A stretch of DNA of 32,000 nt from Candidatus Nitrosopelagicus brevis. Its GTDB lineage: Archaea; Thermoproteota; Nitrososphaeria; Nitrososphaerales; Nitrosopumilaceae. The position numbers and the translations under genes are program-made. The notes under the pieces are model-generated. The model was not told the DNA's origin, made no database searches, and worked only from the letters and a program-made list of their open reading frames with translations. Shown in pieces: positions 6,612 through 31,910 of the stretch (its first letter is position 1; each line of letters starts with the position of its first letter). The stretch is from positions 525,222-557,221 of the forward strand of contig NZ_CP007026.1 of assembly GCF_000812185.1 (NCBI RefSeq). The letters run 5' to 3'.

Positions 6612-9131
6612 ATGACGAAGTGGGCAGATTTTGTAGTCAGTGCAATCAAAAAAGGATCTGGTCTTGCAAACATCTCACATGTACAAATTCATGAAGATTT
6701 GGAACATGGTTTTGGCAGTCCTAAATTAATTGACAAATATCAGTTATCTTCAAAAATACAAAAAGGTCTCACATTTGTTACAGTTCATAAAAAAAATGAA
6801 AATGAGTGGGCAGTTGGAGAACTCATTAGAACTTATGTTAAAGATGGTGAAGCATACATCCGAACCGATGATAACAAAGTTGACGGTGACAATCTTGGTC
6901 ATATGCCAACGGTAGATGAATTAGATTTAGTTTTCAAAGAAATTAAAAAAGAAGAGCCAAAACCAATTCCTACTCCAAAACCAACACCTCCTCCAGAACC
7001 CGAACCTGAACCAGTTGTAGAAACACCTTCTCCAAAAATAAATCCAAATGATGGTGATTTTGAATATGAAGATTCTAAACGAAAATCTTTAGCAGAAGAA
7101 GCTGAAAAATCACGTTCAAACAAATCTATGCCAAAGGGCTGGAGCGAAAAACCTACAGAAAAAGAAATCATTAGTCATGAAATCAAGGAAATGAAGAAAA
7201 AATCCAAACAAAACATATCGCGAGAAAAAGAATTCTCAGATTATGAACAGAAATATCTTGAAAAATTTGAAAAGGGCAAATCAAAAAGTGATAAGTTAAA
7301 AGAAAAATTGAAAAAAACAGAACAAGAAAAACATGATGCTAGAATTTCTAGACGTATAGAACTTGAAAAAGCATCTGGAAAAGATTATGAAAAATTATTA
7401 TCTGAAAAACCAACGCCAGAAAAAGAACCTGAATCTGAGCCTGTTTCTAAGGTTGTAGAAAAAGAGATTGAAAACGAGGAGAAACCCTCAATAGAAAATC
7501 GTATTTCTAGCGTGTTTAAACGGGCAAAATCCAGTGCAAGCACTTCAAGCAAAATTGCAGATGATACTAGAAACTTCATTAGGAAAAAACGGGTTGCTAC
7601 AAAATCTGAACCAGAACCTAACCCAGAACCTAAACCCGAAGGTGGCGGTGGTCCGCATGGACATGATGAAAAATCTAAACCAAAACCTAAACAACCTAAA
7701 GAAAATCCTGATGCTGTAAAAGAAAACGCAAGAAGAGAAAAACTTGCAAAAGAAGCATTGGCAACTCGTTCTAACAAAACTTTACCAAAAGGATTCGGTC
7801 AAGAACCTCCTTCTACAGGTCCTCATGCTCATGATGAAAAACCAGATGAAAAAGAATCAACACCAAAAGATGATTCCAAAGAAGAACAACTTCAAAAAGA
7901 ATTGGCTAATGCAAAGGCTGCACAAGATGAGGCAATAAAGCGTGAACGTGAACAACATGAAAAAGAACTAGAGCAGATAAAGATCCAAATTATGGAAGAT
8001 GCACGAAAACAGGCAGAAAAAGAGGCACAGATAATTCGGGATAAATTACAAAAAGAAATTGATGATGCAAAGGCTGCACAAGAGCAATTACGCAAAGAAG
8101 TCGAAGAAATTAAACTTCTAAAAGAAAATATGGAAAAAATTAAGAACGAACAAAATACTGAAGCCAAAGCTCAAACCGAAGCTGAAGAAAGAAGAGAAAA
8201 ACTTGCAAAAGAAGCATTGGCAACTCGTTCTAACAAAACTTTACCAAAAGGATTCGGTCAAAAATCAACATCTGGCGGTCCTCATGCTCATGATGAAAAC
8301 CCAGATGAAGCAAAAGCTCAGGCTGAAGCAGAAGCAAAAGCTCAGGCTGAAGCAGAAGCAAAAGCTCAGGCTGATGCAGAAGCAAAAGCAAAAGCTCAGG
8401 CTGATGCAGAAGCAAAAGCAAAAGCCGAATCTGCACAACTCCAAAGAGAACTTGAAGAAGCCAAAGCCGAAAAAGAACAGCTAGAACGAGAAGAGGCTGA
8501 AGAAAGAGCAGCAGCTGAGGCAGAAGCAAAAGCTCAGGCTGATGCAGAAGCAAAAGCAAAAGCCGAAGCTGCACAACTCCAAAGAGAACTTGAAGAAGCC
8601 AAAGCCGAAAAAGCAAGATTAGAGAAAGAAGAGGCTGAAGAAAGAGCAGCAGCTGAGGCAGAAGCAAAAGCTCAGGCTGATGCAGAAGCAAAAGCAAAAG
8701 CCGAATCTGCACAACTCCAAAGAGAACTTGAAGAAGCCAAAGCCGAAAAAGCAAGATTAGAGAAAGAAGAGGCTGAAGAAAGAGCAGCAGCTGAGGCAGA
8801 AGCAAAAGCTCAGGCTGATGCAGAAGCAAAAGCAAAAGCCGAATCTGCACAACTCCAAAGAGAACTTGAAGAAGCCAAAGCCGAAAAAGCAAGATTAGAG
8901 AAAGAAGAAGAATCATCTAAAAATGATAACACTGATCTTGCCTCTGAACTCAAGGCTGAATTAGACAATTTACGTAAAGAACTTGAAAATGTTGATGATG
9001 AAGATTCTGACGAAGAAGATGAAAAAACTCCTGAGGATGCAAAAGAAGATTATGCTGCTAAAATGGCTAAGAAAGGTGCAACATTACCAAAAGGATTCAT
9101 CAAAGATGCAAAAGCAAACACTGGTCACTAG
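6612..9131 (+). CDS. 839-aa repeat-rich coiled-coil protein with a conserved ~100-aa N-terminal domain (DUF3892-like by recollection)
   Basis: The N-terminal domain is roughly 60% identical by eye to the whole product of 9186..9497. It is followed by a PT/PE-rich linker (PKPIPTPKPTPPPEPEPEPV), K/E-rich segments, a recurrent SNK[ST][LM]PKG[FW] motif, GPH[AG]HDE motifs and A/E/K-rich tandem repeats. No signal peptide or TM segment. Confidence 0.9.
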   Translation: MTKWADFVVSAIKKGSGLANISHVQIHEDLEHGFGSPKLIDKYQLSSKIQKGLTFVTVHKKNENEWAVGELIRTYVKDGEAYIRTDDNKVDGDNLGHMPTVDELDLVFKEIKKEEPKPIPTPKPTPPPEPEPEPVVETPSPKINPNDGDFEYEDSKRKSLAEEAEKSRSNKSMPKGWSEKPTEKEIISHEIKEMKKKSKQNISREKEFSDYEQKYLEKFEKGKSKSDKLKEKLKKTEQEKHDARISRRIELEKASGKDYEKLLSEKPTPEKEPESEPVSKVVEKEIENEEKPSIENRISSVFKRAKSSASTSSKIADDTRNFIRKKRVATKSEPEPNPEPKPEGGGGPHGHDEKSKPKPKQPKENPDAVKENARREKLAKEALATRSNKTLPKGFGQEPPSTGPHAHDEKPDEKESTPKDDSKEEQLQKELANAKAAQDEAIKREREQHEKELEQIKIQIMEDARKQAEKEAQIIRDKLQKEIDDAKAAQEQLRKEVEEIKLLKENMEKIKNEQNTEAKAQTEAEERREKLAKEALATRSNKTLPKGFGQKSTSGGPHAHDENPDEAKAQAEAEAKAQAEAEAKAQADAEAKAKAQADAEAKAKAESAQLQRELEEAKAEKEQLEREEAEERAAAEAEAKAQADAEAKAKAEAAQLQRELEEAKAEKARLEKEEAEERAAAEAEAKAQADAEAKAKAESAQLQRELEEAKAEKARLEKEEAEERAAAEAEAKAQADAEAKAKAESAQLQRELEEAKAEKARLEKEEESSKNDNTDLASELKAELDNLRKELENVDDEDSDEEDEKTPEDAKEDYAAKMAKKGATLPKGFIKDAKANTGH
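7731..7802 (+). repeat. Intragenic dispersed duplicate, copy 1 (72 nt identical to 8190..8261)
   Basis: agaagagaaaaacttgcaaaagaagcattggcaactcgttctaacaaaactttaccaaaaggattcggtcaa, encoding RREKLAKEALATRSNKTLPKGFGQ. A second identical block, ggtcctcatgctcatgatgaaaa, follows about 17 nt later in both copies. Confidence 0.9.
8190..8261 (+). repeat. Intragenic dispersed duplicate, copy 2
   Basis: Identical 72-nt string to 7731..7802. Confidence 0.9.
8307..8426 (+). repeat. Short tandem repeat, 24-nt unit gaagcaaaagctcaggctga(a/t)gca (EAKAQAEA), with two 30-nt variant units
   Basis: Units start at 8307, 8331, 8355, 8379 and 8409. In frame within the 839-aa CDS. Confidence 0.85.
8490..8903 (+). repeat. 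Three tandem copies of a 138-bp (46-codon) unit
   Basis: Units start at 8490, 8628 and 8766. Copies 2 and 3 are identical. Copy 1 differs at one base (gaagct vs gaatct, A vs S). Encodes EEAEERAAAEAEAKAQADAEAKAKAE(A/S)AQLQRELEEAKAEKARLEK. A partial, more diverged copy precedes it (about 8400-8489). Confidence 0.95.
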
Positions 9132-12437: not shown

Positions 12438-12468
12438 TTTTGGCACCAGTTTATGAAATTAGCATTAG

Positions 12469-12476
12469 TTTTATAC
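12469..12476 (+). promoter_or_regulatory. TATA box TTTTATAC, 28 nt upstream of ATG 12497
   Basis: The same octamer occurs at 25558 and on the minus strand at 25461-25454. Confidence 0.55.
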
Positions 12477-12496: not shown

Positions 12497-13438
12497 ATGA
12501 AAAAATTAGGAATTGGATTACTTGCACTTTCAATATCTCTTGCAATGACTGGTATCGGATTTGATAATGCATTTGCTGAAGAAATTAAGATTGAAAATGG
12601 TCGCGGTTCATCCCAGCCGGGATGCGAGGTAACAAACCTATGTTTTGTACCTGCAATTGCAACTGCAAACGTTGGTGATAAAATAATATTTTTGAATGGA
12701 GATGATGCTCCACATACTTCAACTAGCGGTAATCCTACAAGTGGACCTGATGGTATCTGGGATAGTGGATTACAGCAACCTGGAGTAGATTTTGTATTTA
12801 TGGCAACTACCCCTGGAACTTTTGATTATTTCTGTATGGTCCATCCGTGGATGGCTGGACAACTGGTAATCTTAGCTGCTGATTCAGAAACCTCTAATGA
12901 CATAATTTCTAACTATGGAACCTCAGTTGATCAAACTGAATCAATGATTTATGGTGATACCACACCTGAAATATCTAAAAAAGATCCAGGAGCTGTGAAT
13001 GAAGTATTTGCAAACATCGTTACAAGTGATGCTTCAAAAGGCTCTCCTCTAACAATTGAAGTCGAATTTATGGAATCAGATGGATTTGTTATCAATCATG
13101 TAAATTATGACATAACTGTATCTCAAAATGGTGAAATAATACTTGCTGACAATGGTGCACACCGTCACTTGTTCAAATATCCTGTACACACTACTGATGA
13201 ATTAGAATTTGATCCTAAAGAACATCCTGTTGACATTGATGTAACATTTCAAGGAATTGGTCACTTTGTTGGTTCATTAACTGAAGAATCAATACTAGGA
13301 GTTTACGGTCCTATTGGAACGACATCTACTTTTCAAGTAGTTCCTGAGTTTGGTGTAATTGTATCACTAGTACTAGTAATTTCAATTACTGCAGTTATTG
13401 GATTCTCTGCTAAAACAAGATTAATACAAAAATTCTAG
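12497..13438 (+). CDS. Secreted blue-copper (cupredoxin/plastocyanin-like) protein with an extra domain and a PEFG-CTERM anchor
   Basis: Signal peptide MKKLGIGLLALSISLAMTG. Type-1 Cu ligand pattern: PHTSTSG ... YFCMVHPWMAGQLVI (H...C-x2-H-x2-M). The C-terminus VPEFGVIVSLVLVISITAVIGFSAKTR matches the PEFG-CTERM sorting signal as I recall it. Confidence 0.85.
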   Translation: MKKLGIGLLALSISLAMTGIGFDNAFAEEIKIENGRGSSQPGCEVTNLCFVPAIATANVGDKIIFLNGDDAPHTSTSGNPTSGPDGIWDSGLQQPGVDFVFMATTPGTFDYFCMVHPWMAGQLVILAADSETSNDIISNYGTSVDQTESMIYGDTTPEISKKDPGAVNEVFANIVTSDASKGSPLTIEVEFMESDGFVINHVNYDITVSQNGEIILADNGAHRHLFKYPVHTTDELEFDPKEHPVDIDVTFQGIGHFVGSLTEESILGVYGPIGTTSTFQVVPEFGVIVSLVLVISITAVIGFSAKTRLIQKF

Positions 13439-20636: not shown

Positions 20637-21236
20637 CTAATATCCGCCTTTTACAAACTCATATTCTTTTTTGTTAAAGTCGAATTGCGTTACGAGTACT
20701 TCGCCCATTGCATCAACTGCTGCCTGAACCACATCTGGTTGAGTTGAGAAGAATCCTCTGAATTTTCCAATTCCAAACTCTTCTGCTATTAAACCGATTG
20801 GTCCATCTGGACCACGTGTTACAACTGCCCATACTGAAGCAAGCGGTGTTCCAACACAGCTGATAACCACACAACTATCTGGCATCTCTTGAGCCAAGTG
20901 TGGATTATTGAAGTTTCCAATTACCCACGTTCTTGGGAGTTTCTTCATCAATTTCAGATATCTGTCCTTGACAAACTCGTACCTTTTGTCAGTCTCAAAT
21001 GACGCTAGTAATGGGGATGTGTGTTTTGATGCATAGTTCTCAATCATTATGCTTAGTGCAAAAAGATCTGAACGGTCTGCTTTGAAGTTTAGATATCCAC
21101 CGTCTTGAAAGTCCTGAAAGTTCCAGTTCACAAAAATTTCGTCGCCCTGTTCGGCAATTTCTTTTTTCTCTGGGAACTTTTCAAAGACTGTATCAATCAA
21201 ACTGTCGTTCGTTAAACCCATGTTTAACGTTAACAT
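20637..21236 (-). CDS. Unknown-function protein, possibly a DICT-like sensory domain
   Basis: 199 aa, or 194 aa if ATG 21221 is used; that start has TTAAATAT 28 nt upstream. The C-terminal pattern SVWAVVTRGPDGPIGLIAEEFGIGKFRGFFSTQPDVVQAAVDAM resembles my recollection of DICT (PF10069) C-termini. Sits immediately downstream of the B12-binding regulator gene. Confidence 0.75.
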   Translation of the reverse strand: MLTLNMGLTNDSLIDTVFEKFPEKKEIAEQGDEIFVNWNFQDFQDGGYLNFKADRSDLFALSIMIENYASKHTSPLLASFETDKRYEFVKDRYLKLMKKLPRTWVIGNFNNPHLAQEMPDSCVVISCVGTPLASVWAVVTRGPDGPIGLIAEEFGIGKFRGFFSTQPDVVQAAVDAMGEVLVTQFDFNKKEYEFVKGGY

Positions 21237-21251
21237 ATAGAATATTTAAGC

Positions 21252-21280
21252 TAGTGGAAACTAGGTATTATAGTGGTAAT
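21252..21280. promoter_or_regulatory. Two TAGTGG motifs (TAGTGGAAA at 21252, TAGTGGTAAT at 21271), 19 bp apart, upstream of the 199-aa gene
   Basis: Same motif family as the clusters at 22148-22243 and 25464-25554. Confidence 0.45.
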
Positions 21281-22131
21281 TATTTCTTTTTTATAATTCG
21301 AGGAATTTGTTCCAGGGCATGAGCATCAGTGATGAGTTTTCCATCAAATTTAAAATTCGTTTTCTCCGTAAATGCCAGACCTCCTATGAAAATTGGAAGT
21401 TTCTTATATGCTTCATGAATTTTTTTAACCATTCTTTGACCAGATCTGATATTGTCCTCTAACGTTATTGATACAATTAGAGCATCTGGTTTTGCAGTTT
21501 TTATAAATTCAATTAGTGATTCTGCAGGGGTTGATGGTGATAGATTAAATGTTGTAAATCCCTTTGAGACTAAAAATGAATCTAGTACGTTACAACCTAA
21601 ATTGTGATCCTCTCCAACTGGAGTGGTTAGTACAATTTTTCCTTTATCCTTCTTTGATTTTCTATTTTCATCTGCAATTACCTTAACAAGACTATGAGCA
21701 ATGTTGCTGGCAACGTGTTCTGTTGCAATTGATAGCTTACCTTCTGACCACAAATATCCAATTTCGGCCATAACTGGTGTCATAATTCTTTCATAGAACT
21801 GGTCTAGTGTATTGCTTGAGACAAATGCTGTGTAAATCTCCATTGTATCTTTTAGACTTCCTTCTGTAAGTGATGAAAATAATTTGGTTCTTAATTGCTC
21901 AATTAATTTTTCACGTTTTTCTCTGTCCTTTGGTGTATTTTGTAGTAAAAATGAGTTAATTTTTGCATCCTCTCTAAATTCTGCAGGGATATCATCTCTG
22001 GTCACAGATGTAGATTCACCTAGATATTTGATGGTTTCCTGTCTGGATGTCTTTCTTTCTTTATCCCACGTACTTTTTACTAAATATAGATAATCGACTC
22101 CTTTTACCTTCTTTTTTCGAAGATATACCAT
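21280..22131 (-). CDS. CarH-like adenosylcobalamin-binding (photoreceptor-type) regulator with a non-MerR N-terminal domain
   Basis: W128-x9-E138-H139 (YLWSEGKLSIATEHVAS). E174-D-H176-N-L-G179 (ExHxxG). G179-x41-S221-I-T223. T223-x26-G250-G251. The N-terminal 45 aa are basic and beta-rich (VYLRKKKVKGVDYLYLVKSTWDKERKTSRQETIKYLGE), with no HTH recognised. Confidence 0.8.
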   Translation of the reverse strand: MVYLRKKKVKGVDYLYLVKSTWDKERKTSRQETIKYLGESTSVTRDDIPAEFREDAKINSFLLQNTPKDREKREKLIEQLRTKLFSSLTEGSLKDTMEIYTAFVSSNTLDQFYERIMTPVMAEIGYLWSEGKLSIATEHVASNIAHSLVKVIADENRKSKKDKGKIVLTTPVGEDHNLGCNVLDSFLVSKGFTTFNLSPSTPAESLIEFIKTAKPDALIVSITLEDNIRSGQRMVKKIHEAYKKLPIFIGGLAFTEKTNFKFDGKLITDAHALEQIPRIIKKK

Positions 22132-22147
22132 TAGCCGTATTACTGAA

Positions 22148-22243
22148 TAGTGCCTAATAAGTATATCTAGTGCTAACTAGTACATTTCGTGCCTAAAAAC
22201 ACAAAAAATTCTGAATATTATGGATTTTAAAGATTACCACTAT
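22148..22243. promoter_or_regulatory. Cluster of four TAGTG[C/G](C)TAA motifs in the divergent intergenic region
   Basis: TAGTGCCTAA at 22148-22157, TAGTGCTAA at 22168-22176 and TCGTGCCTAA at 22187-22196 are direct repeats spaced 20 and 19 bp. ATAGTGGTAA lies on the minus strand at 22243-22234. The first two flank the AT-rich TATA candidate at 22155-22168. Confidence 0.5.
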
Positions 22244-22282
22244 GACGAAACTTAAAAGACACACTGTTACCGTTTGTACTAG

Positions 22283-22555
22283 TTGGCTCGCGAAAAAAGA
22301 ACAAGAATTCAATTGTATTTTGATATAATTTCAGCAATAATCCAAGAAGAAGATATCTCGCCAACACGAATTCAGTTCAAATGTAATACCTCCTATGATA
22401 AATTAATGAAATATCTGGAAGAAATGCAAAAACGTGAAATCATAGCAAGAAATGGCTCAATCGGTGTTACCGATAAAGGAAAAAAATTTCATACGGATTA
22501 TTCAAAAATTAACGATCTAATATCTGAAATTAGTAAAACGATTACGGAAGAGTAA
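22283..22555 (+). CDS. Small winged-helix DNA-binding protein (HTH_45-like)
   Basis: 90 aa. RIQLYFDIISAI...SPTRIQFKCNTSYDKLMKYLEEMQKREIIARNG...VTDKGKKF matches the small archaeal wHTH pattern. TTG 22283 is the first codon after an in-frame TAG, and the first in-frame ATG (codon 42) would remove the N-terminal RIQLYFDIISAI segment and truncate the domain. Confidence 0.65.
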   Translation: MAREKRTRIQLYFDIISAIIQEEDISPTRIQFKCNTSYDKLMKYLEEMQKREIIARNGSIGVTDKGKKFHTDYSKINDLISEISKTITEE

Positions 22556-23090
22556 ATAATTCAGTACCTTTCTCTTTTGTCTGAAATATTATAGCTTTGT
22601 GAGATTCTAGTAATTGATTCAAAAATCTATCTCTTAGTTCTTCGTTAATCTGTTTGACCTCAAACGAACAAACAAAGTTACCATTAATTTTTTCAAAACC
22701 ATCATCAACACATTGTTCAATTTCTGCCATTCTATCTGTCTTTTCTTCAGAATCAAAATCAAAGTAGTGTGTTGAAACAACTCTAATTTTAGCTTCTTCA
22801 GGTAATCCTTCCACTTTGTCTAAAATCATATCTGAATAATCTTCAAATTTTTCAGGAATCTCTACTATGTGTAAAAGCTCATTACTCTCTCCATCTTCAA
22901 TTCCAAATTGCTTCATTTCATCTAGGATTTTTTGACGATTTTGTGTTGTATAGAAGCAGTGTTGACCCTTGTCTAGTCCTTTTTTAATAAATCCATATTC
23001 TGTTTGCTTTTTTTCTTCATTTCCATCGTGAAAAAGCACTACATGTGTGCGCTCTAAACTTTCAAGAAAGTCCTCAGATTGCGAGCTCAT
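22542..23090 (-). CDS. MEDS-like (KaiC/RecA-derived sensory) domain protein
   Basis: 182 aa. THVVLFHDGNEEKKQTEYGFIKKGLDKGQHCFYTT resembles the MEDS N-terminal signature (H.v.fY...ee......fi..Gl..ge.c.y). Its 3' end overlaps the wHTH gene convergently by 14 nt. Confidence 0.6.
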   Translation of the reverse strand: MSSQSEDFLESLERTHVVLFHDGNEEKKQTEYGFIKKGLDKGQHCFYTTQNRQKILDEMKQFGIEDGESNELLHIVEIPEKFEDYSDMILDKVEGLPEEAKIRVVSTHYFDFDSEEKTDRMAEIEQCVDDGFEKINGNFVCSFEVKQINEELRDRFLNQLLESHKAIIFQTKEKGTELFTLP

Positions 23091-23196: not shown

Positions 23197-23358
23197 ATGT
23201 TAAAAGATCCAAAAGTCGATTGTGTTTTCTGCAACAAATCGGTGTTCGACCACTCAAATTTTGAAAGCAGAGAATGCCTCTCAAAACATCTCCAGGTCCA
23301 AAAAATCCTTCAAAGCGCCATGGGTGAAACTGAATCTGGCCAAAACTTCTTTTCTTAA
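23197..23358 (+). CDS. Candidate 53-aa zinc-finger-like micro-protein
   Basis: Below the ORF-track cut-off. My translation is MLKDPKVDCVFCNKSVFDHSNFESRECLSKHLQVQKILQSAMGETESGQNFFS (C9-x2-C12-x14-C27-x3-H31). GTTATATG lies about 40 nt upstream and T-runs follow the stop. Confidence 0.4.
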   Translation: MLKDPKVDCVFCNKSVFDHSNFESRECLSKHLQVQKILQSAMGETESGQNFFS

Positions 23359-23393: not shown

Positions 23394-24863
23394 TTATGAG
23401 TAATCTGTATTGTAAACTGGTCTAGCACCGCTTGGTACTTCTGCACCAGCAGATTCCTTGACTGATTCTCCTCTTGCCTGGTAAACTCTGACTTTGTGAA
23501 ATACATTGTGGGATGAAAATATTGCCAATCCGGCAATTCCAGCTCCTATGAAATTCCTTAATGTCACATCGATACTTGGTTCTGCACCTATTACTGACAT
23601 TTGGAATACAACGTAAAAATTGTCAAATAACCAAAATGCCAAAGTTACCCATGATAGCAATCCTCCAATAAGATAGCCTAGCCTTGCTTTTTGTCTTACA
23701 AATAAAATTGCAAAAATAATTGCAACATACCAAATGAATGATCCAAATAACCATGATATTTCCCATACATCTGTTCTATCATCCATCCAGTAGTATGTGG
23801 AACCAATTATTGCCATGGCACAAAGTGAAATCAAAAGTAATTTTTGATTAACCTTGTAAGATGTTTTTTCTTCAGGTGTTTTTTCAATTGGTTTGAAAGC
23901 TACTTGTTCTTCTCTTGCCTCTTTGATTGCTTCAGTCATATGTTTGAGATTTACTGGAACAAATTCTTCTACTGATTTGTCTTTTACGTATGAGTCGTGA
24001 ACTAAACTGTCTACTAGTGGCCTTGCAAGTGATGCCTTTACCGGAGTTACCAAATCAATCCAGTATGATGATAATCTTGGCGTTAAAAATGGAATTTGTA
24101 TGATATTCAAATTTCTATTAATTATTGATGAATACAGTCTCATCATTTGTTCGTATGTCATTTTATCAGGTCCACCAATCTCAAATATTTTTCCGGCAGT
24201 TGATGGATTTTTCATAGCACCCACTAGATAATCTACAACATTTTCGACTGCAATTGGCTGCGTTGTAGATTTTACCCATCTTGGGCAAACCATTAGTGGT
24301 AATCTTTCAACAAGATATCGGAGCATTGCGTATGAACCACCCTCTGCACCCACAATTACTGATGCTCTCAATTCTGTAACTGGAATGGTTCCTGATGCTA
24401 AAATTTTGCCAACTTCGTGCCTACTTCTCATGTGTTTTGATAATTCTAAACTTTCGTTTACCAATCCTCCAAGATAGATTATTCTTTTTACTCCTGCGTT
24501 TTCAGCAGCTTTTAGAAAATTTTGTGCTTGAACTTTTTCTCTATCTGCAAATTGTTCCCATTCTTTTTTGGAACCTTCCATAGAGTGTAGAAGGTAAAAT
24601 GCAGTTTCTACTCCCTTGAATGCATTAGATAATGTGTCCAACTCTAACGCATCTGCTGCTACAAATTTTACATTATCTGAATTTTGATGTAGTGTTCTTG
24701 ACATCGCGGTAACTTTGTACCCTGTTTTGGATAATCTCTCTGTTAGTTTTTTTCCAATGAATCCTGTGGCGCCTGTAACTAGAATTGAATAATCATTGAT
24801 TTTGGCACTTTCTTTTAATGCTGCCATTTTCTCTAAATTACTTGAACTTGCTTTCTGACTCAT
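23394..24863 (-). CDS. NmrA/atypical-SDR-like NAD(P)-binding domain fused to a C-terminal four-TM membrane domain
   Basis: ILVTGATGFIGKKL (Rossmann GxxGxxG) within a ~300-aa epimerase/NmrA-like region. Then four hydrophobic helices follow (LLLISLCAMAIIGSTYYW, WLFGSFIWYVAIIFAILFV, LIGGLLSWVTLAFWLF, FIGAGIAGLAIFSS). Confidence 0.85.
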   Translation of the reverse strand: MSQKASSSNLEKMAALKESAKINDYSILVTGATGFIGKKLTERLSKTGYKVTAMSRTLHQNSDNVKFVAADALELDTLSNAFKGVETAFYLLHSMEGSKKEWEQFADREKVQAQNFLKAAENAGVKRIIYLGGLVNESLELSKHMRSRHEVGKILASGTIPVTELRASVIVGAEGGSYAMLRYLVERLPLMVCPRWVKSTTQPIAVENVVDYLVGAMKNPSTAGKIFEIGGPDKMTYEQMMRLYSSIINRNLNIIQIPFLTPRLSSYWIDLVTPVKASLARPLVDSLVHDSYVKDKSVEEFVPVNLKHMTEAIKEAREEQVAFKPIEKTPEEKTSYKVNQKLLLISLCAMAIIGSTYYWMDDRTDVWEISWLFGSFIWYVAIIFAILFVRQKARLGYLIGGLLSWVTLAFWLFDNFYVVFQMSVIGAEPSIDVTLRNFIGAGIAGLAIFSSHNVFHKVRVYQARGESVKESAGAEVPSGARPVYNTDYS

Positions 24864-24865
24864 TT

Positions 24866-25237
24866 TTACTCCTTGTCTAGTTTACGAAGTTCTTTAAGAT
24901 CTACAATCTCAATATCTTTGCTCAGAGTTACCAGAGATGATAATTTTGGTTTGGCATTTTTACCCATTTTAAGAACTAGTTTATTTTTATGTAATATCTC
25001 AAGTGTCACATTCTCTTTTTTTAGAACTTTTCCTATATGTTTGGCCTCAGTTAATTGTTTCAATAGGCTCATTTTTCCAGGAATTTTTGTAGGAAGGTGC
25101 TTGATGTTTAATCTTCTAATATCTCCTTTTGAGGAAAATTCTATAGCGGTACCATCTCCATCACTGATGGTTAAGTCTCCGCTACGGAGGTAAAGTAAAA
25201 AATTGGCAGGAAGGTCGCTTTTCATTTTCGTATCCAT
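24866..25237 (-). CDS. Hypothetical protein (123 aa)
   Basis: K/E/L-rich, protein-like composition. 2-nt gap to the downstream gene. The overlapping plus-strand ORF 24873..25193 is S/L/F/R-rich, as expected for an antisense frame. Confidence 0.65.
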   Translation of the reverse strand: MDTKMKSDLPANFLLYLRSGDLTISDGDGTAIEFSSKGDIRRLNIKHLPTKIPGKMSLLKQLTEAKHIGKVLKKENVTLEILHKNKLVLKMGKNAKPKLSSLVTLSKDIEIVDLKELRKLDKE

Positions 25238-25243
25238 TCCTGA

Positions 25244-25432
25244 TTAGGTTTTTGTTGTGATAGTCAAGCCACCTGTTAGTACAACTGTTCCTGTTGAAAC
25301 TTTCTTGCCATTGCGGTCAACCATTCCACTAAGTTCTAATTTGTCGAACTTGTATGAAATGGCTGCATGCTTTGCAGTTAGTTTATCAAAAACTTCTGCC
25401 AGGAGACTTGCCCATTCTTGTTCTTCTGTCAT
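25244..25432 (-). CDS. Hypothetical small protein (62 aa)
   Basis: ATG 25432 (MTEEQEWASLL) has TTTTATAC exactly 29 nt upstream. The longer 25474 start would place the TATA box and a TAGTG motif inside the CDS. Confidence 0.55.
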   Translation of the reverse strand: MTEEQEWASLLAEVFDKLTAKHAAISYKFDKLELSGMVDRNGKKVSTGTVVLTGGLTITTKT

Positions 25433-25453
25433 ACAAATCCTAATTACGTCATA

Positions 25454-25461
25454 GTATAAAA
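25454..25461 (-). promoter_or_regulatory. TATA box (TTTTATAC on minus strand), 29 nt upstream of ATG 25432
   Basis: Identical octamer to the opposing promoter at 25558-25565. Confidence 0.55.
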
Positions 25462-25463
25462 CG

Positions 25464-25554
25464 CTAGTGACCAAAGGTGAGTCTAGTGCCTAAATGTTAT
25501 CACCATATTACAAATAGTGGTAAATATTGGCACTAGAAGCACCCTAGTGCATAA
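25464..25554. promoter_or_regulatory. Cluster of five TAGTG-family motifs between two divergent TTTTATAC promoters
   Basis: CTAGTGACCAA at 25464-25474. CTAGTGCCTAA at 25483-25493. ATAGTGGTAAA at 25514-25524. TTGGCACTAG at 25527-25536 (reverse orientation). CTAGTGCATAA at 25544-25554. TCTAGTGCC (25482-25490) and GGCACTAGA (25529-25537) form a perfect 9-bp inverted repeat with a 38-bp spacer. Confidence 0.5.
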
Positions 25555-25557
25555 CTG

Positions 25558-25565
25558 TTTTATAC
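25558..25565 (+). promoter_or_regulatory. TATA box TTTTATAC, 29 nt upstream of ATG 25587
   Basis: Position and sequence. Confidence 0.55.
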
Positions 25566-25586
25566 TATAAATGGAAAATCTGTTTA

Positions 25587-26168
25587 ATGAGCACTACACA
25601 ATCACTTCCAAGTAAGATCGCATTGATGAAAGGTGGAATCGGGGCAGGCCTAATGGGTGGCTTCGCATTATTTTCATCATTCTTTGCAATCGATCAAATG
25701 TTAGATATTCCGGCAGGAACATTCTACAAAACCATCGGTGTTACAATGGGCGTGGATGAAACTTCAGCAATTGCAGTGGGCTTTATAGCTCACATGGGAG
25801 TTGCAGCATTGATTGGGGCCATGTACTTTTTGGCTTCAAACATTTGGAGATTCTTTAGATTGGTAACAGTTCCAAAAGCAATAATCACTGGTGTTTGGAC
25901 TGGGCTAATTGTTTTCACATTAGCATTTTTACCGATTCACATGTTCGTAATGACTCCAATGATGGAGGTAGAATTAATTATTACCGACGTATCAAAATTT
26001 GACTTGGAACAACAAAAGGCATTAGCAACCCTGTTGTATGAAAGCGACAAAATTTACATCAATGCTTTGATTCTCCACATAATCTATGGAGCAATCGCAG
26101 GATTCGTTGGAGGTTGCATAATGCATGAAGACTACAAAGGAGTGAAAAGGATTGGCGGATTCTGGTAA
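25587..26168 (+). CDS. Hypothetical multi-pass membrane protein (193 aa)
   Basis: Four to five hydrophobic helices (GIGAGLMGGFALFSSFFAI, AIAVGFIAHMGVAALIGAMYFL, IITGVWTGLIVFTLAFLPIHMFV, ILHIIYGAIAGFVGGCIM). Confidence 0.75.
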   Translation: MSTTQSLPSKIALMKGGIGAGLMGGFALFSSFFAIDQMLDIPAGTFYKTIGVTMGVDETSAIAVGFIAHMGVAALIGAMYFLASNIWRFFRLVTVPKAIITGVWTGLIVFTLAFLPIHMFVMTPMMEVELIITDVSKFDLEQQKALATLLYESDKIYINALILHIIYGAIAGFVGGCIMHEDYKGVKRIGGFW

Positions 26169-30479: not shown

Positions 30480-30899
30480 ATGTTAAAGATATCTTTTGAA
30501 AGAAAAATTAATGCTGATATTGAAAAATCTTTTGATATAATTACAAATTTTGAAAATTTTCAAAAACTATTCCCCGAGTTTTATCCTTCCATTTTGATAA
30601 AGTCTGTTAGAGATGAGAGTTCTCTTGTTGCAGAGCATCTAAAACTTCATGATTCTGAATTTATCATTATGTCCAAACATTTCTTTTCACGTCCTCATAC
30701 ACATGAGATGCGCGTTGTGGGTGGAGATATCAAAGGAAGCAGCATCAATGAAATTTTTAGTTCTGAAGATGGAAAAACTACTCTCAAAGTTATTGCGGAA
30801 TTAGATGTAAAATCATCTCGTTTTTCAAAAAATAATTCATACAAAGATTCTTTGAATAAATTATATGATAAAATGATCTCAGAAATTGAGAAATCTTAA
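30480..30899 (+). CDS. SRPBCC (polyketide cyclase/START-like) family protein
   Basis: 139 aa. INADIEKSFDIITNFENFQKLFPEF near the N-terminus, a beta-rich middle and a C-terminal helix. AATATTTT lies 32 nt upstream. Confidence 0.6.
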   Translation: MLKISFERKINADIEKSFDIITNFENFQKLFPEFYPSILIKSVRDESSLVAEHLKLHDSEFIIMSKHFFSRPHTHEMRVVGGDIKGSSINEIFSSEDGKTTLKVIAELDVKSSRFSKNNSYKDSLNKLYDKMISEIEKS

Positions 30900-31093
30900 T
30901 CTTTACTTTCTTTGAACTCTTTTAGTTCTTTATCTGCTTCAATTTCTCCTTTCTTGTATTCGCCTTTAGCTTTACCAAATGTTTTTGCTAGTTCTGGTAT
31001 TTTCTTTGCTCCAAATAGCAATACACCTGCGGCCACGATTACAATAATCCATTCGCTTCCTCCTGGAATGAAATTGAATAAGCTCTCAATCAT
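30896..31093 (-). CDS. tatA: Twin-arginine translocase subunit TatA/E
   Basis: 65 aa. GGSEWIIVIVAAGVLLFGAKKIPELAKTFGKAKGEYKKG is the TM helix, hinge Gly and amphipathic helix signature. Confidence 0.85.
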   Translation of the reverse strand: MIESLFNFIPGGSEWIIVIVAAGVLLFGAKKIPELAKTFGKAKGEYKKGEIEADKELKEFKESKD

Positions 31094-31118
31094 GATTCAT
31101 CTAGTGATAAATTCTCAT

Positions 31119-31910
31119 TTAAGTCTTGATGGTCTGCTTTTCTTGTCTTTCTGCAACTACCATGCCTGCAAAATATAATGCAATCATTGGTAATGATACA
31201 AACCACATTGTAACTCCGCTACCATCGGGCGTAATTACTGCACCAAATACAATTATGGCAATAATTGCATATCGCAAATTCCTTCTCCAAAATTTGGCAT
31301 CTACTAAACCTGAAAGACTGACCGCATACATTATGAGCGGCAACTGGAATGAAATACCAAATGCTAACAAGAACTGTAAAACAAATGTAACAAAATCCAT
31401 AATGTTCAAAAATGTTACCAAACCTGCAGATTCTCCATACCTGTAAAGAAAATCTAAAATAAATGGAATTACAGCTGCATATGAAAATGCACATCCTGTA
31501 ATGAACAAACCTATTGCTGGAAGTGTTATTGAGCGCCCAACATGAATCTCTCTTTCTCTCAATGCAGGTTTCAAAAATGATATGAATTCTCTAACAATGA
31601 TTGGTATGCTTAGAACAATTCCGATTAGTGCTGCAATGTATACTTGGGAGAAAAATGCTTGTCCTGGTGCGGTTTGAATTAACTGAACTCCATCTGGAAC
31701 TAGTTCTCCTTTCATTACATTTGTAAACTGGGCTGCAATGTTGTTTAGCGGTTCTGGGTATGGATAATACAATGTTACTCCCATGACATCAAATGGTGTT
31801 GCATGAAATGTTAGAATGAATACTGTAATAACTAGAATAGAAATTATTGAACGAATTACTCTTTTTCTCAGTTCCTCAATGTGTGTATTTATCTCATTAA
31901 TCTCTGACAT
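31119..31910 (-). CDS. tatC: Twin-arginine translocase subunit TatC
   Basis: 263 aa with six predicted TM helices. The N-terminus (HIEELRKRVIRSIISILV) and overall pattern are typical of TatC. Sits adjacent to tatA. Confidence 0.88.
   Translation of the reverse strand: MSEINEINTHIEELRKRVIRSIISILVITVFILTFHATPFDVMGVTLYYPYPEPLNNIAAQFTNVMKGELVPDGVQLIQTAPGQAFFSQVYIAALIGIVLSIPIIVREFISFLKPALREREIHVGRSITLPAIGLFITGCAFSYAAVIPFILDFLYRYGESAGLVTFLNIMDFVTFVLQFLLAFGISFQLPLIMYAVSLSGLVDAKFWRRNLRYAIIAIIVFGAVITPDGSGVTMWFVSLPMIALYFAGMVVAERQEKQTIKT

Follow-up and report, generated by a model that had tools for sequence, protein, structure and literature searches.

Paired TAGTGC-type repeats at the promoter of a B12-binding protein gene of Candidatus Nitrosopelagicus brevis: candidate operator of a CarH-like regulator of ammonia-oxidizing archaea

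Repeats in the spacer between the 283-aa and 90-aa genes

Within the window (the whole 32,000-nucleotide stretch of Candidatus Nitrosopelagicus brevis DNA that was analysed), a spacer of 151 bp (22132-22282) parts a minus-strand gene encoding a 283-aa protein from a plus-strand gene encoding a 90-aa winged-helix (wHTH) protein. The spacer carries repeat copies and TATA-like elements, which are listed here together with the two flanking genes (scores are those of the weight matrix described below):

21280..22131, minus strand: gene of the 283-aa regulator candidate, composed of an N-terminal beta domain (residues 1-40), a helical linker, a bundle of four helices, and a B12-binding domain of Rossmann type
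22146..22158, plus strand: repeat 1, AATAGTGCCTAAT, with the core TAGTGCCTAA at 22148-22157; 15.3 bits
22158..22166, minus strand: TATA-like element of the 283-aa gene, ATATACTTA, at -35..-27 from the ATG
22166..22178, plus strand: repeat 2, TCTAGTGCTAACT, with the core TAGTGCTAA at 22168-22176; 18.4 bits, the strongest site
22185..22197, plus strand: repeat 3, TTTCGTGCCTAAA, with TCGTGCCTAA at 22187-22196; 5.0 bits, 19 bp from repeat 2
22232..22244, minus strand: repeat 4 (the inverted copy), CATAGTGGTAATC, with ATAGTGGTAA at 22243-22234; 11.9 bits
22253..22259, plus strand: TATA-like element of the wHTH gene, TTAAAAG, beginning 30 nt before the TTG at 22283
22283..22555, plus strand: 90-aa winged-helix gene (HTH_45, Sso10a-like), with one site upstream

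The original prediction described this array as three phased direct repeats plus one inverted copy. The four copies and the start-to-start spacing of those on the plus strand (20 and 19 bp) can be read directly from the sequence. Copies 1 and 2, with the AT-rich stretch 22155-22168 between them, do bracket the proposed TATA candidate, as ATATACTTA lies between both. Repeat 1 occupies positions -27..-15 of the 283-aa gene, between the TATA-like element and the start codon, and repeat 2 abuts the BRE-side (upstream) edge of the same element. Among close relatives repeat 2 is invariant, and so is repeat 1 but for one base in loci L007, L010 and L011. The TATA-like element is also conserved in these relatives, and its position is that found at other promoters of the window, where such elements (TTATATA, TTTTATAC and the like) have their first base ~30 nt ahead of the start codons; very short leaders are therefore probable for the transcripts. 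In close relatives with the gene order of the window, the block AGTTAGCACTAGATAT[A/G]CTTATTAG[G/T]CACTAT is invariant, while its flanks diverge, including the 15 nt up to the ATG.

The third plus-strand copy is of a different quality. In close relatives only GCCTAAAA is kept and the core TCGTG varies as TCACG, TTGTG or TTGCG, and in loci L001-L006 the copy is absent. Repeat 3 is a weak pseudo-repeat at best, and the arrangement is therefore better described as two strong repeats and one pseudo-repeat. The observation itself is confirmed, with the reservation that copy 3 is weak. The fourth copy lies, as had been proposed, nearer to the wHTH gene; in the orientation of that gene it reads TTACCACTAT and is placed 9 nt upstream of TTAAAAG. 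L007 and L011 conserve both this copy and the TTAAAAG after it. The 10-mer ATAGTGGTAA occurs three times in the window, each time in intergenic DNA: at 21271 (plus strand), 22243 (minus strand) and 25514 (plus strand).

An Rfam search of the window gave no match, and RNA folding of the spacer was no better than that of shuffled sequences on either strand (z = -0.74 and -1.27). A 13-nt inverted repeat, GCTAACTAGTACA (22172-22184 / 22275-22287), was rejected as chance because one arm runs over the wHTH start codon and conservation is missing in the other.

Paired sites at other promoters and in other genomes

The degenerate motif TMGTGCYWA, which covers the three plus-strand copies, has 6 matches in the 32-kb window against 1.13 expected, and 6 was reached by one of 100 shuffles; two of the other three matches lie in the divergent spacer at 25.5 kb. 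For a wider comparison, 71 loci with relatives of the 283-aa protein were compiled (one genome per species, 5-kb flanks). When 7-mers were counted without bias in the 150-nt upstream regions of 51 non-redundant orthologues, with controls taken from the same loci, GTGCTAA, TAGTGCT, AGTGCTA and CTAGTGC came out on top; these were present in 34-37 of the 51 upstream regions and in ~4% of 1020 control pieces. Iterative refinement yielded a 13-column weight matrix with the consensus n[C/A]TAGTGC[T/C][A/T]A, into which no spacing was built. Since the matrix was trained on regions upstream of the regulator gene, there is some circularity in its hits at regulator promoters; neither the 19-20 bp spacing nor the promoters of other genes depend on the training set.

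The strongest result of this analysis is the fixed spacing. In the window and the 71 loci taken together, same-strand pairs are spaced by 19 bp 76 times and by 20 bp 25 times, and no other spacing up to 60 bp is seen more than 7 times, except for a class of 30-31 bp that derives from one spacer type. These 101 pairs at 19-20 bp, found in 657 kb, compare with none in ten randomised sets, and the five pairs of the window with none in 50 first-order Markov randomisations. The motif occurs almost only as same-strand pairs 19-20 bp apart, and it is concentrated in promoter-proximal intergenic DNA, which bears out the intergenic enrichment that the original prediction called for. One pair with a 22-bp spacing (24391/24413) lies inside the coding region of the NmrA-like gene and was treated as chance.

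Footprinting of orthologous spacers, also suggested at the outset, revealed that the motif is kept from 98%-identical Nitrosopelagicus to ~40%-identical soil Nitrososphaeraceae. Upstream of most orthologues, in gene orientation, TTAGCACTAG is followed by 9-10 bases and by TTAG(G)CA[C/T][C/T]AT just before the start. This layout spans Nitrosopelagicus, Nitrosotenuis, other Nitrosopumilales and soil Nitrososphaeraceae, the proteins of which are ~40-45% identical. In one clade (L057-L064) the regulator gene is preceded by a pair of reversed orientation that still abuts a TATA-like element, which argues for a factor site over a directional basal element. About one quarter of the loci have no strong pair upstream of the orthologue, and some of these loci are incomplete. 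A metagenome scan for CACTAG-N13-14-YCACTAG-N-TTWWAWA was dominated, among the matches listed, by an unrelated repeat, TTCACTAGATCTGAAAAAAATTCACTAGATTTAAAA, on contigs of ~40% GC; only L111 and L152 among these matches look archaeal.

The canonical layout across the loci is TTAGCACTAG-N9-TTA[T/G]CACTAG-TTTATATA, ~25 nt before the start, i.e. a distal site, nine bases, a proximal site, 0-2 bases and TTTATATA, and it is found at many unrelated genes. It is present three times in the window: before the cupredoxin gene, the 62-aa gene (25463-25494) and the 199-aa gene. Relative to this layout, the promoter of the regulator gene has its array displaced by one unit, with repeat 3 in the usual distal position. 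The sites outside the 22132-22282 spacer and the genes next to them are:

12438..12469, minus strand: repeat pair 19 bp apart, in gene orientation TTGGCACCAG-N9-TTAGCATTAG and then directly TTTTATAC; 14.4 and 14.6 bits
12497..13438, plus strand: gene of a secreted, cupredoxin-like protein (313 aa, PEFG-CTERM sorting signal), lying 9 kb from the regulator
20637..21236, minus strand: 199-aa gene, weakly DICT-like, directly downstream of the regulator gene and syntenic in 14 loci
21250..21281, plus strand: repeat pair GCTAGTGGAAACT / TATAGTGGTAATT, 19 bp apart, then TTAAATAT; upstream of the 199-aa gene, with the same pair before its orthologues in 13 loci
23394..25432, minus strand: p62-p123-NmrA-like gene string, driven from the promoter at 25.4 kb; the NmrA-like protein has 489 aa and a membrane C-terminus
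25463..25555, both strands: six-site array, with plus-strand starts at 25463, 25482, 25513 and 25543 and minus-strand starts at 25507 and 25537
25587..26168, plus strand: 193-aa membrane-protein gene, on the opposite side of the six-site array

The sites thus mark at least five further promoters of the window, those of the DICT-like gene, the wHTH gene (single site), the p62-p123-NmrA-like string, the membrane-protein gene and the cupredoxin gene. The array in 22132-22282 is a local instance of a regulon-wide operator and is not peculiar to its spacer. Both the wHTH gene and the cupredoxin-like gene are probably members of the regulon. The 25.5-kb spacer is the most elaborate of the arrangements: six sites spread over 92 bp, with an imperfect palindrome of 45 nt, lie between two divergent TTTTATAC elements and include two head-to-head pairs with cores 10 bp apart.

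Within 5 kb of the regulator in the sampled loci, pairs precede the regulator gene itself (47 loci), a gene for a secreted protein of ~250-330 aa (at least 19), the 199-aa gene (13), and genes for a zinc-ribbon protein (7), the NmrA-like membrane protein (6), the 62-aa protein (5), an SRPBCC protein (5) and several small membrane proteins. The most conserved neighbour of the regulator is the NmrA-like gene (42 of 71 loci). A MEDS gene and the weakly DICT-like gene adjoin the regulator; the 199-aa product of the latter reaches 11.8 bits with Pfam DICT PF10069 (cut-off 23.8; E = 0.24), over profile positions 25-126 of 129. No obvious photolyase or other photoprotection gene was seen among the window ORFs or the targets.

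The 283-aa protein and its 90-aa neighbour

The 283-aa protein contains two Pfam domains, B12-binding_2 (PF02607, residues 81-151, 37.2 bits against a cut-off of 23) and B12-binding (PF02310, residues 164-255, 42.4 bits against 32.1). Its homologues number more than 1500, all of them from ammonia-oxidizing archaea, including soil and apparently deep-water lineages, and automated annotations name some of them 'light-induced transcriptional regulator' or 'corrinoid protein'. With Candidatus Nitrosopelagicus genomes the window shares ~98% identity. An alignment of 17 diverse homologues, reaching down to 63% identity, showed that W128-x9-E138-H139 and E174-x-H176-x2-G179-x41-S221-x-T223-x26-G250-G251 are invariant. 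CarH homologues have been defined by the motifs Wx9EH and ExHx2Gx41SxV/Tx22-27GG (PMC8156234), and both are present in the 283-aa protein. The signature residues align one-to-one with those of TtCarH and photocobilin; MetH, with a similar overall score, has neither the W nor the EH.

Further comparisons place the protein close to these photoreceptors and also mark where it departs from them. The AlphaFold model has a mean pLDDT of 79, and its best fold matches in the PDB are photocobilin (8j2w), TtCarH (5c8d/8c31) and CtMerR (8jbs), with E ~1e-11 to 1e-12. The best NCBIfam family is CarH (NF052513), with 63.4 bits over residues 77-230 only, against a cut-off of 400. Of the four SignatureFinder elements of light-responsive domains (PMC11796333), GxxW (GYLW), EH and GxxH (GEDH) are present, while the GxxxP position, which is GPDTP in TtCarH and GASVP in photocobilin, reads SPSTP. 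The His beside the signature Trp in TtCarH is a Ser in the 283-aa protein; photocobilin likewise lacks that His.

The first 80 residues matched no Pfam family. They hold three long antiparallel strands (2-9, 12-23 and 28-39), predicted with a pLDDT of ~90 in both models, and the first 45 residues include 12 Lys/Arg. The residues that are most strongly conserved in the family lie in this N-terminal domain. No match to MerR was found at the N-terminus in Pfam or NCBIfam, and matches to PDB sequences begin at residue 80; because its DNA-binding domain is not MerR-like, the 283-aa protein is not a member of the CarH family. The analogy with CarH drawn in the original prediction therefore applies to the B12 module, with both signature motifs, and does not extend to the DNA-binding domain. 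Foldseek searches of PDB and BFVD with the N-terminal domain gave no significant match, and no structural match to a solved integrase or AP2-type domain was obtained.

A profile of the N-terminal domain retrieved only 269 cluster representatives among 1.84 billion proteins. Apart from the B12 fusions, the domain is found among these at the extreme N-terminus of a DDE_Tnp_1 transposase, an HNH endonuclease and an AbiEii protein. Its closest known counterparts include the N-terminal DNA-binding modules of IS4/IS1634-type DDE transposases; the sheet is three-stranded, antiparallel and rich in Lys/Arg. DNA binding by this domain is therefore reasoned from its charge and its domain context, in a domain that has no Pfam or PDB relative. 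Proteins that bind DNA through a beta-sheet exist, such as integrase arm-binding domains.

The 90-aa protein matches Pfam HTH_45 (PF14947) with 48.1 bits, above the cut-off of 25.5, and NCBIfam Sso10a with 41.5 against 60. Its gene was found within 5 kb in 11 of the 71 loci, all from close Nitrosopelagicus relatives, and most of the 60 loci without it still have the motif, which makes the wHTH protein an unlikely binder. In genomes with a 96-98% identical regulator, the wHTH gene is otherwise oriented and its product only ~71% identical, while the operator is unchanged.

Proposed regulation, alternatives and known systems

The best reading of these data, and on balance a likely one, is a CarH-like repressor that would regulate its own gene and have both a DNA-binding domain and an operator of a new kind. 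The repeats would then be operator half-sites of the 283-aa protein encoded beside them, each ~10-bp site [C/A]TAGTGC[T/C][A/T]A being contacted by one N-terminal three-stranded beta-sheet domain, and an oligomer, joined via its B12-binding domains, would span two same-strand sites 19-20 bp apart. By analogy with CarH, the pairing as direct repeats suggests reading by a head-to-tail dimer. We consider it quite probable that the 283-aa protein binds the paired sites. Its gene is the only putative DNA-binding gene that is consistently near the motif in the 71 loci, with pairs before the orthologue in 47, and autoregulation is therefore the economical reading.

At the regulator promoter, repeat 2 would cover the BRE position and repeat 1 the stretch between the TATA-like element and the transcription start, with repeat 3 as a weak auxiliary site; occupancy of repeats 2 and 1 should exclude TFB/TBP or RNA polymerase and so bring about negative autoregulation. 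Provided that the protein binds, repression by such exclusion is the likely outcome. Such pairs also abut the TATA-like elements of the DICT-like, p62-p123-NmrA-like, membrane-protein and cupredoxin promoters, and the divergent wHTH gene is reached by a single site.

As the B12 module has the photoreceptor signatures of CarH, the likely signal is adenosylcobalamin/light. The protein would assemble in the dark in dependence on adenosylcobalamin and disassemble after photolysis, and light would thus derepress the regulon. We lean slightly towards control of the 283-aa protein by adenosylcobalamin and light, as in CarH. The light reading is favoured by the MEDS and weakly DICT-like genes that adjoin the regulator, since MEDS and DICT domain types are listed among the partners of light-responsive B12 domains (PMC11796333). 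Against it are the Gly-to-Ser change in GxxxP, the absence of a His beside the Trp, the soil and deep-water lineages and the lack of obvious photoprotection targets; given the occurrence of the family in soil and apparently deep-water lineages, B12 sensing rather than light sensing is possible. The most complete form of the proposal, a B12-based photoreceptor transcription factor of ammonia-oxidizing archaea with a beta-sheet head shared with transposases, paired TAGTGC sites and a light-controlled regulon, is put forward tentatively, with confidence just short of even.

The same protein could also act at the same sites as an activator that recruits TBP/TFB to promoters with a poor BRE, activation being switched by B12 or light, which we regard as unlikely. 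In canonical promoters both sites are upstream of the TATA-like element, the region bound by archaeal activators such as Ptr2 and TFB-RF1, and sites abutting the upstream TATA edge could serve activation as well as repression; in addition, the CACTAG hexamer beside the TATA of regulon promoters differs from the flanks of the other TATA-like elements of the window. The proximal site, however, leaves only 0-2 nt before the TATA and so occupies the BRE itself, and the regulator's own promoter has one strong site between TATA and start. Moreover, the orientation is inverted in L057-L064, and every characterised CarH protein is a repressor (PMC9304148).

It is more doubtful still that another factor binds the sites, either the 90-aa HTH_45 protein or an unlinked regulator, with the B12 gene only as a target or as the gene of an AerR-like cofactor-binding partner. 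The 90-aa protein is a bona fide winged-helix protein whose gene is preceded by a site, no relative of the N-terminal domain of the 283-aa protein is proven to bind DNA, and B12-binding partners of separate DNA-binding proteins are known (AerR with CrtJ). These points are outweighed by the distribution of the motif, which accompanies the B12 gene class-wide, whereas the wHTH gene is nearby in the 11 loci noted above and is re-oriented and diverged beside an unchanged operator in 98%-identical genomes. The N-terminal domain, furthermore, is the most conserved part of the 283-aa protein, and the motif is conserved as well; AerR-type proteins have no such extra domain.

A specialised basal element, e.g. 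a variant BRE recognised by one TFB paralogue out of the many in thaumarchaea, is very improbable: the proximal copy does lie exactly at the BRE position, directly upstream of the TATA-like element, in most regulon promoters, but a pair at a fixed 19-20 bp spacing is not expected of a BRE, its direction with respect to the gene may be reversed, some copies stand downstream of the TATA (repeat 1) or face each other as head-to-head pairs, and it is one regulator gene that the motif follows. A chance resemblance within AT-rich intergenic DNA, or functionless remnants of a small mobile repeat, can be set aside, since, short as the sites are, weak as copy 3 is and chance-like as the 13-nt inverted repeat looks, there are 101 pairs against none in randomised sequence, the motif is kept across lineages with proteins only ~40% identical while the flanks diverge, and the spacers between sites differ among promoters, so that no repeated element is being copied.

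For the CarH-like repressor, the closest known systems are CarH and LitR (Thermus thermophilus, Bacillus megaterium and Myxococcus xanthus), in which one polypeptide likewise combines an N-terminal DNA-binding part, a bundle of four helices and a B12 domain of Rossmann type. The 283-aa protein has both defining motifs and its closest solved folds in common with them. CarH operators, too, are arrays of short direct repeats over core promoter elements, and its own promoter is among the targets. One TtCarH head-to-tail dimer spans 22 bp between the two repeats that it contacts, 1 and 3 (PMC9304148), which is close to the 19-20 bp of the archaeal pairs. The differences are as clear: the DNA-binding domain of CarH is a MerR winged helix and that of the 283-aa protein a three-stranded beta-sheet domain; the CarH operator consists of contiguous 11-bp repeats, nnnnTnnACAn (PMC9304148), whereas ~10-bp TAGTGCYWA sites spaced 19-20 bp are found here; and the present host is an archaeon with TATA/BRE promoters, in which the protein has no His beside the Trp and the targets are not carotenoid genes. 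The 283-aa protein thus looks CarH-like in function and not a CarH by membership: both B12 motifs are there, and the MerR domain, a score at the family cut-off and the CarH operator type are not.

Photocobilins and CtMerR (PMC11796333, PMC10979010) are among the best sequence and fold matches (8j2w/8j2x and 8jbs) and share GxxW, EH and GxxH with the 283-aa protein. As with light-responsive B12 proteins, MEDS and DICT-type domains occur in the neighbourhood of its gene. In contrast to these proteins, it has no bilin-binding or enzymatic output domain, and its GxxxP reads SPSTP; judged from the sequence, its output is apparently DNA binding, via a domain that is absent from the survey of PMC11796333. 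AerR / PpaA use a related B12-binding domain (AerR 7te2, E = 3.8e-5) for gene control. AerR, however, has no DNA-binding domain and acts through CrtJ, whereas the 283-aa protein has a fused basic N-terminal domain, and the motif tracks the 283-aa gene and not any neighbouring HTH gene.

Among archaeal repressors, TrmB, Lrs14, MDR1 and NrpR occlude the BRE/TATA or the start site, and autoregulation and small local regulons are typical. The sites described here likewise overlap BRE/TATA or fall between the TATA and the start. Those repressors have helix-turn-helix folds and mostly palindromic sites, and to our knowledge none of them uses a B12 module.

A literature search turned up no publication on the archaeal family, on its N-terminal domain or on its operator, an absence that is not in itself proof of novelty, and no description of a light- or B12-sensing regulator of ammonia-oxidizing archaea was found either. 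What would be new here is a different DNA-reading head, operator architecture and archaeal promoter context on a CarH-like B12 regulator.

Ammonia-oxidizing archaea, the drivers of nitrification in marine and soil habitats, are light-inhibited and rank among the major cobalamin producers (PMC4303638). If the proposal is true, the 283-aa protein would be the first B12-based photoreceptor transcription factor in archaea, and these light-sensitive nitrifiers would have a direct light-controlled regulon comprising the cupredoxin, the NmrA-like membrane protein, the DICT/MEDS sensors and small membrane proteins. The switch would be a testable one, with a defined protein, a ~10-bp site in fixed 19-20 bp pairing and few target promoters, and cultured hosts carry the system, e.g. 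Nitrosotenuis chungbukensis MY2 (locus L030). Optogenetics could also gain from it a green-light module that reads DNA with another kind of head. Compared with the known systems, it would bring B12 photoreception to TATA/BRE promoters of archaea, and the DNA-binding folds of transcription factors would be joined by a new one.

Motif sites away from the regulator promoter

Besides the promoter of the gene for the 283-aa B12-binding regulator, the motif ([C/A]TAGTGC[T/C][A/T]A) was found, among other places, in the following features of the window:

12438-12469, a strong repeat pair (two same-strand sites 19 bp apart) followed directly by TTTTATAC, upstream of the gene at 12497-13438
25451-25568, a 45-nt imperfect palindrome with two divergent promoters

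The product of the gene at 12497-13438, a secreted protein, is cupredoxin-like and bears a PEFG-CTERM signal. As this gene and its repeat pair are located 9 kb from the regulator, the regulon (i.e. the genes with such sites at their promoters) reaches past the immediate neighbours. The palindrome at 25451-25568 carries TTTTATAC and motif sites on each arm, and six motif copies, including two head-to-head pairs (core distance of 10 bp), are packed into 92 bp. This is the densest motif array of the window, exceeding the one at the regulator promoter.

Two minus-strand genes, one tatC-like (31119-31910) and one tatA-like (30896-31093), are separated by a short gap that contains a lone strong site, TCTAGTGATAAAT (31100-31112; 14.3 bits). 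Among the matches listed from the metagenome pattern scan (L072-L191), a repeat unrelated to the motif, TTCACTAGATCTGAAAAAAATTCACTAGATTTAAAA, was dominant, and it was found on contigs of approximately 40% GC from few samples. The region 7001-9000 is of atypical composition for the window (AT skew of 0.40-0.56, GC of up to 0.42) and lies within an 839-aa ORF (6612-9131), whose N-terminus gave a weak DUF3892 match.

Orientation of the winged-helix gene

The 90-aa winged-helix (wHTH) gene (22283-22555) is divergent from the regulator gene in the window and in two loci encoding regulator relatives (L007 and L011). In loci L001-L006, L008 and L012 the two genes point the same way, and the identity of the wHTH gene is only about 71%, against 96-98% for the regulator. 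This suggests a local inversion or an allele replacement beside an unchanged operator. A 13-nt inverted repeat, GCTAACTAGTACA (22172-22184) and TGTACTAGTTGGC (22275-22287), is probably a chance occurrence, since the second arm covers the wHTH start codon and the first is not preserved among relatives.

The regulator's N-terminal domain, paralogues and neighbours

The N-terminal beta-sheet domain of the regulator, for which there is no Pfam model, was also found at the head of a DDE transposase, an HNH endonuclease and an AbiEii nucleotidyltransferase (P0269, P0224 and P0219), and this distribution suggests a mobile, putative DNA-binding module. Soil Nitrososphaeraceae genomes encode two to four paralogues of the regulator each (L044/L045, L049/L050 and L038/L055/L068/L069), most with the motif upstream.

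A putative ORF of 53 aa (23197-23358), Cys-rich at its start (CVFCNK...EC), is located inside the 300-nt gap between the MEDS gene and an NmrA-like gene. The regulator is flanked by a protein of 199 aa (20637-21236), whose DICT match is below threshold, and by one of 182 aa with a MEDS domain (22542-23090); both domain types are among the partners of light-responsive B12 domains in a published survey (PMC11796333).
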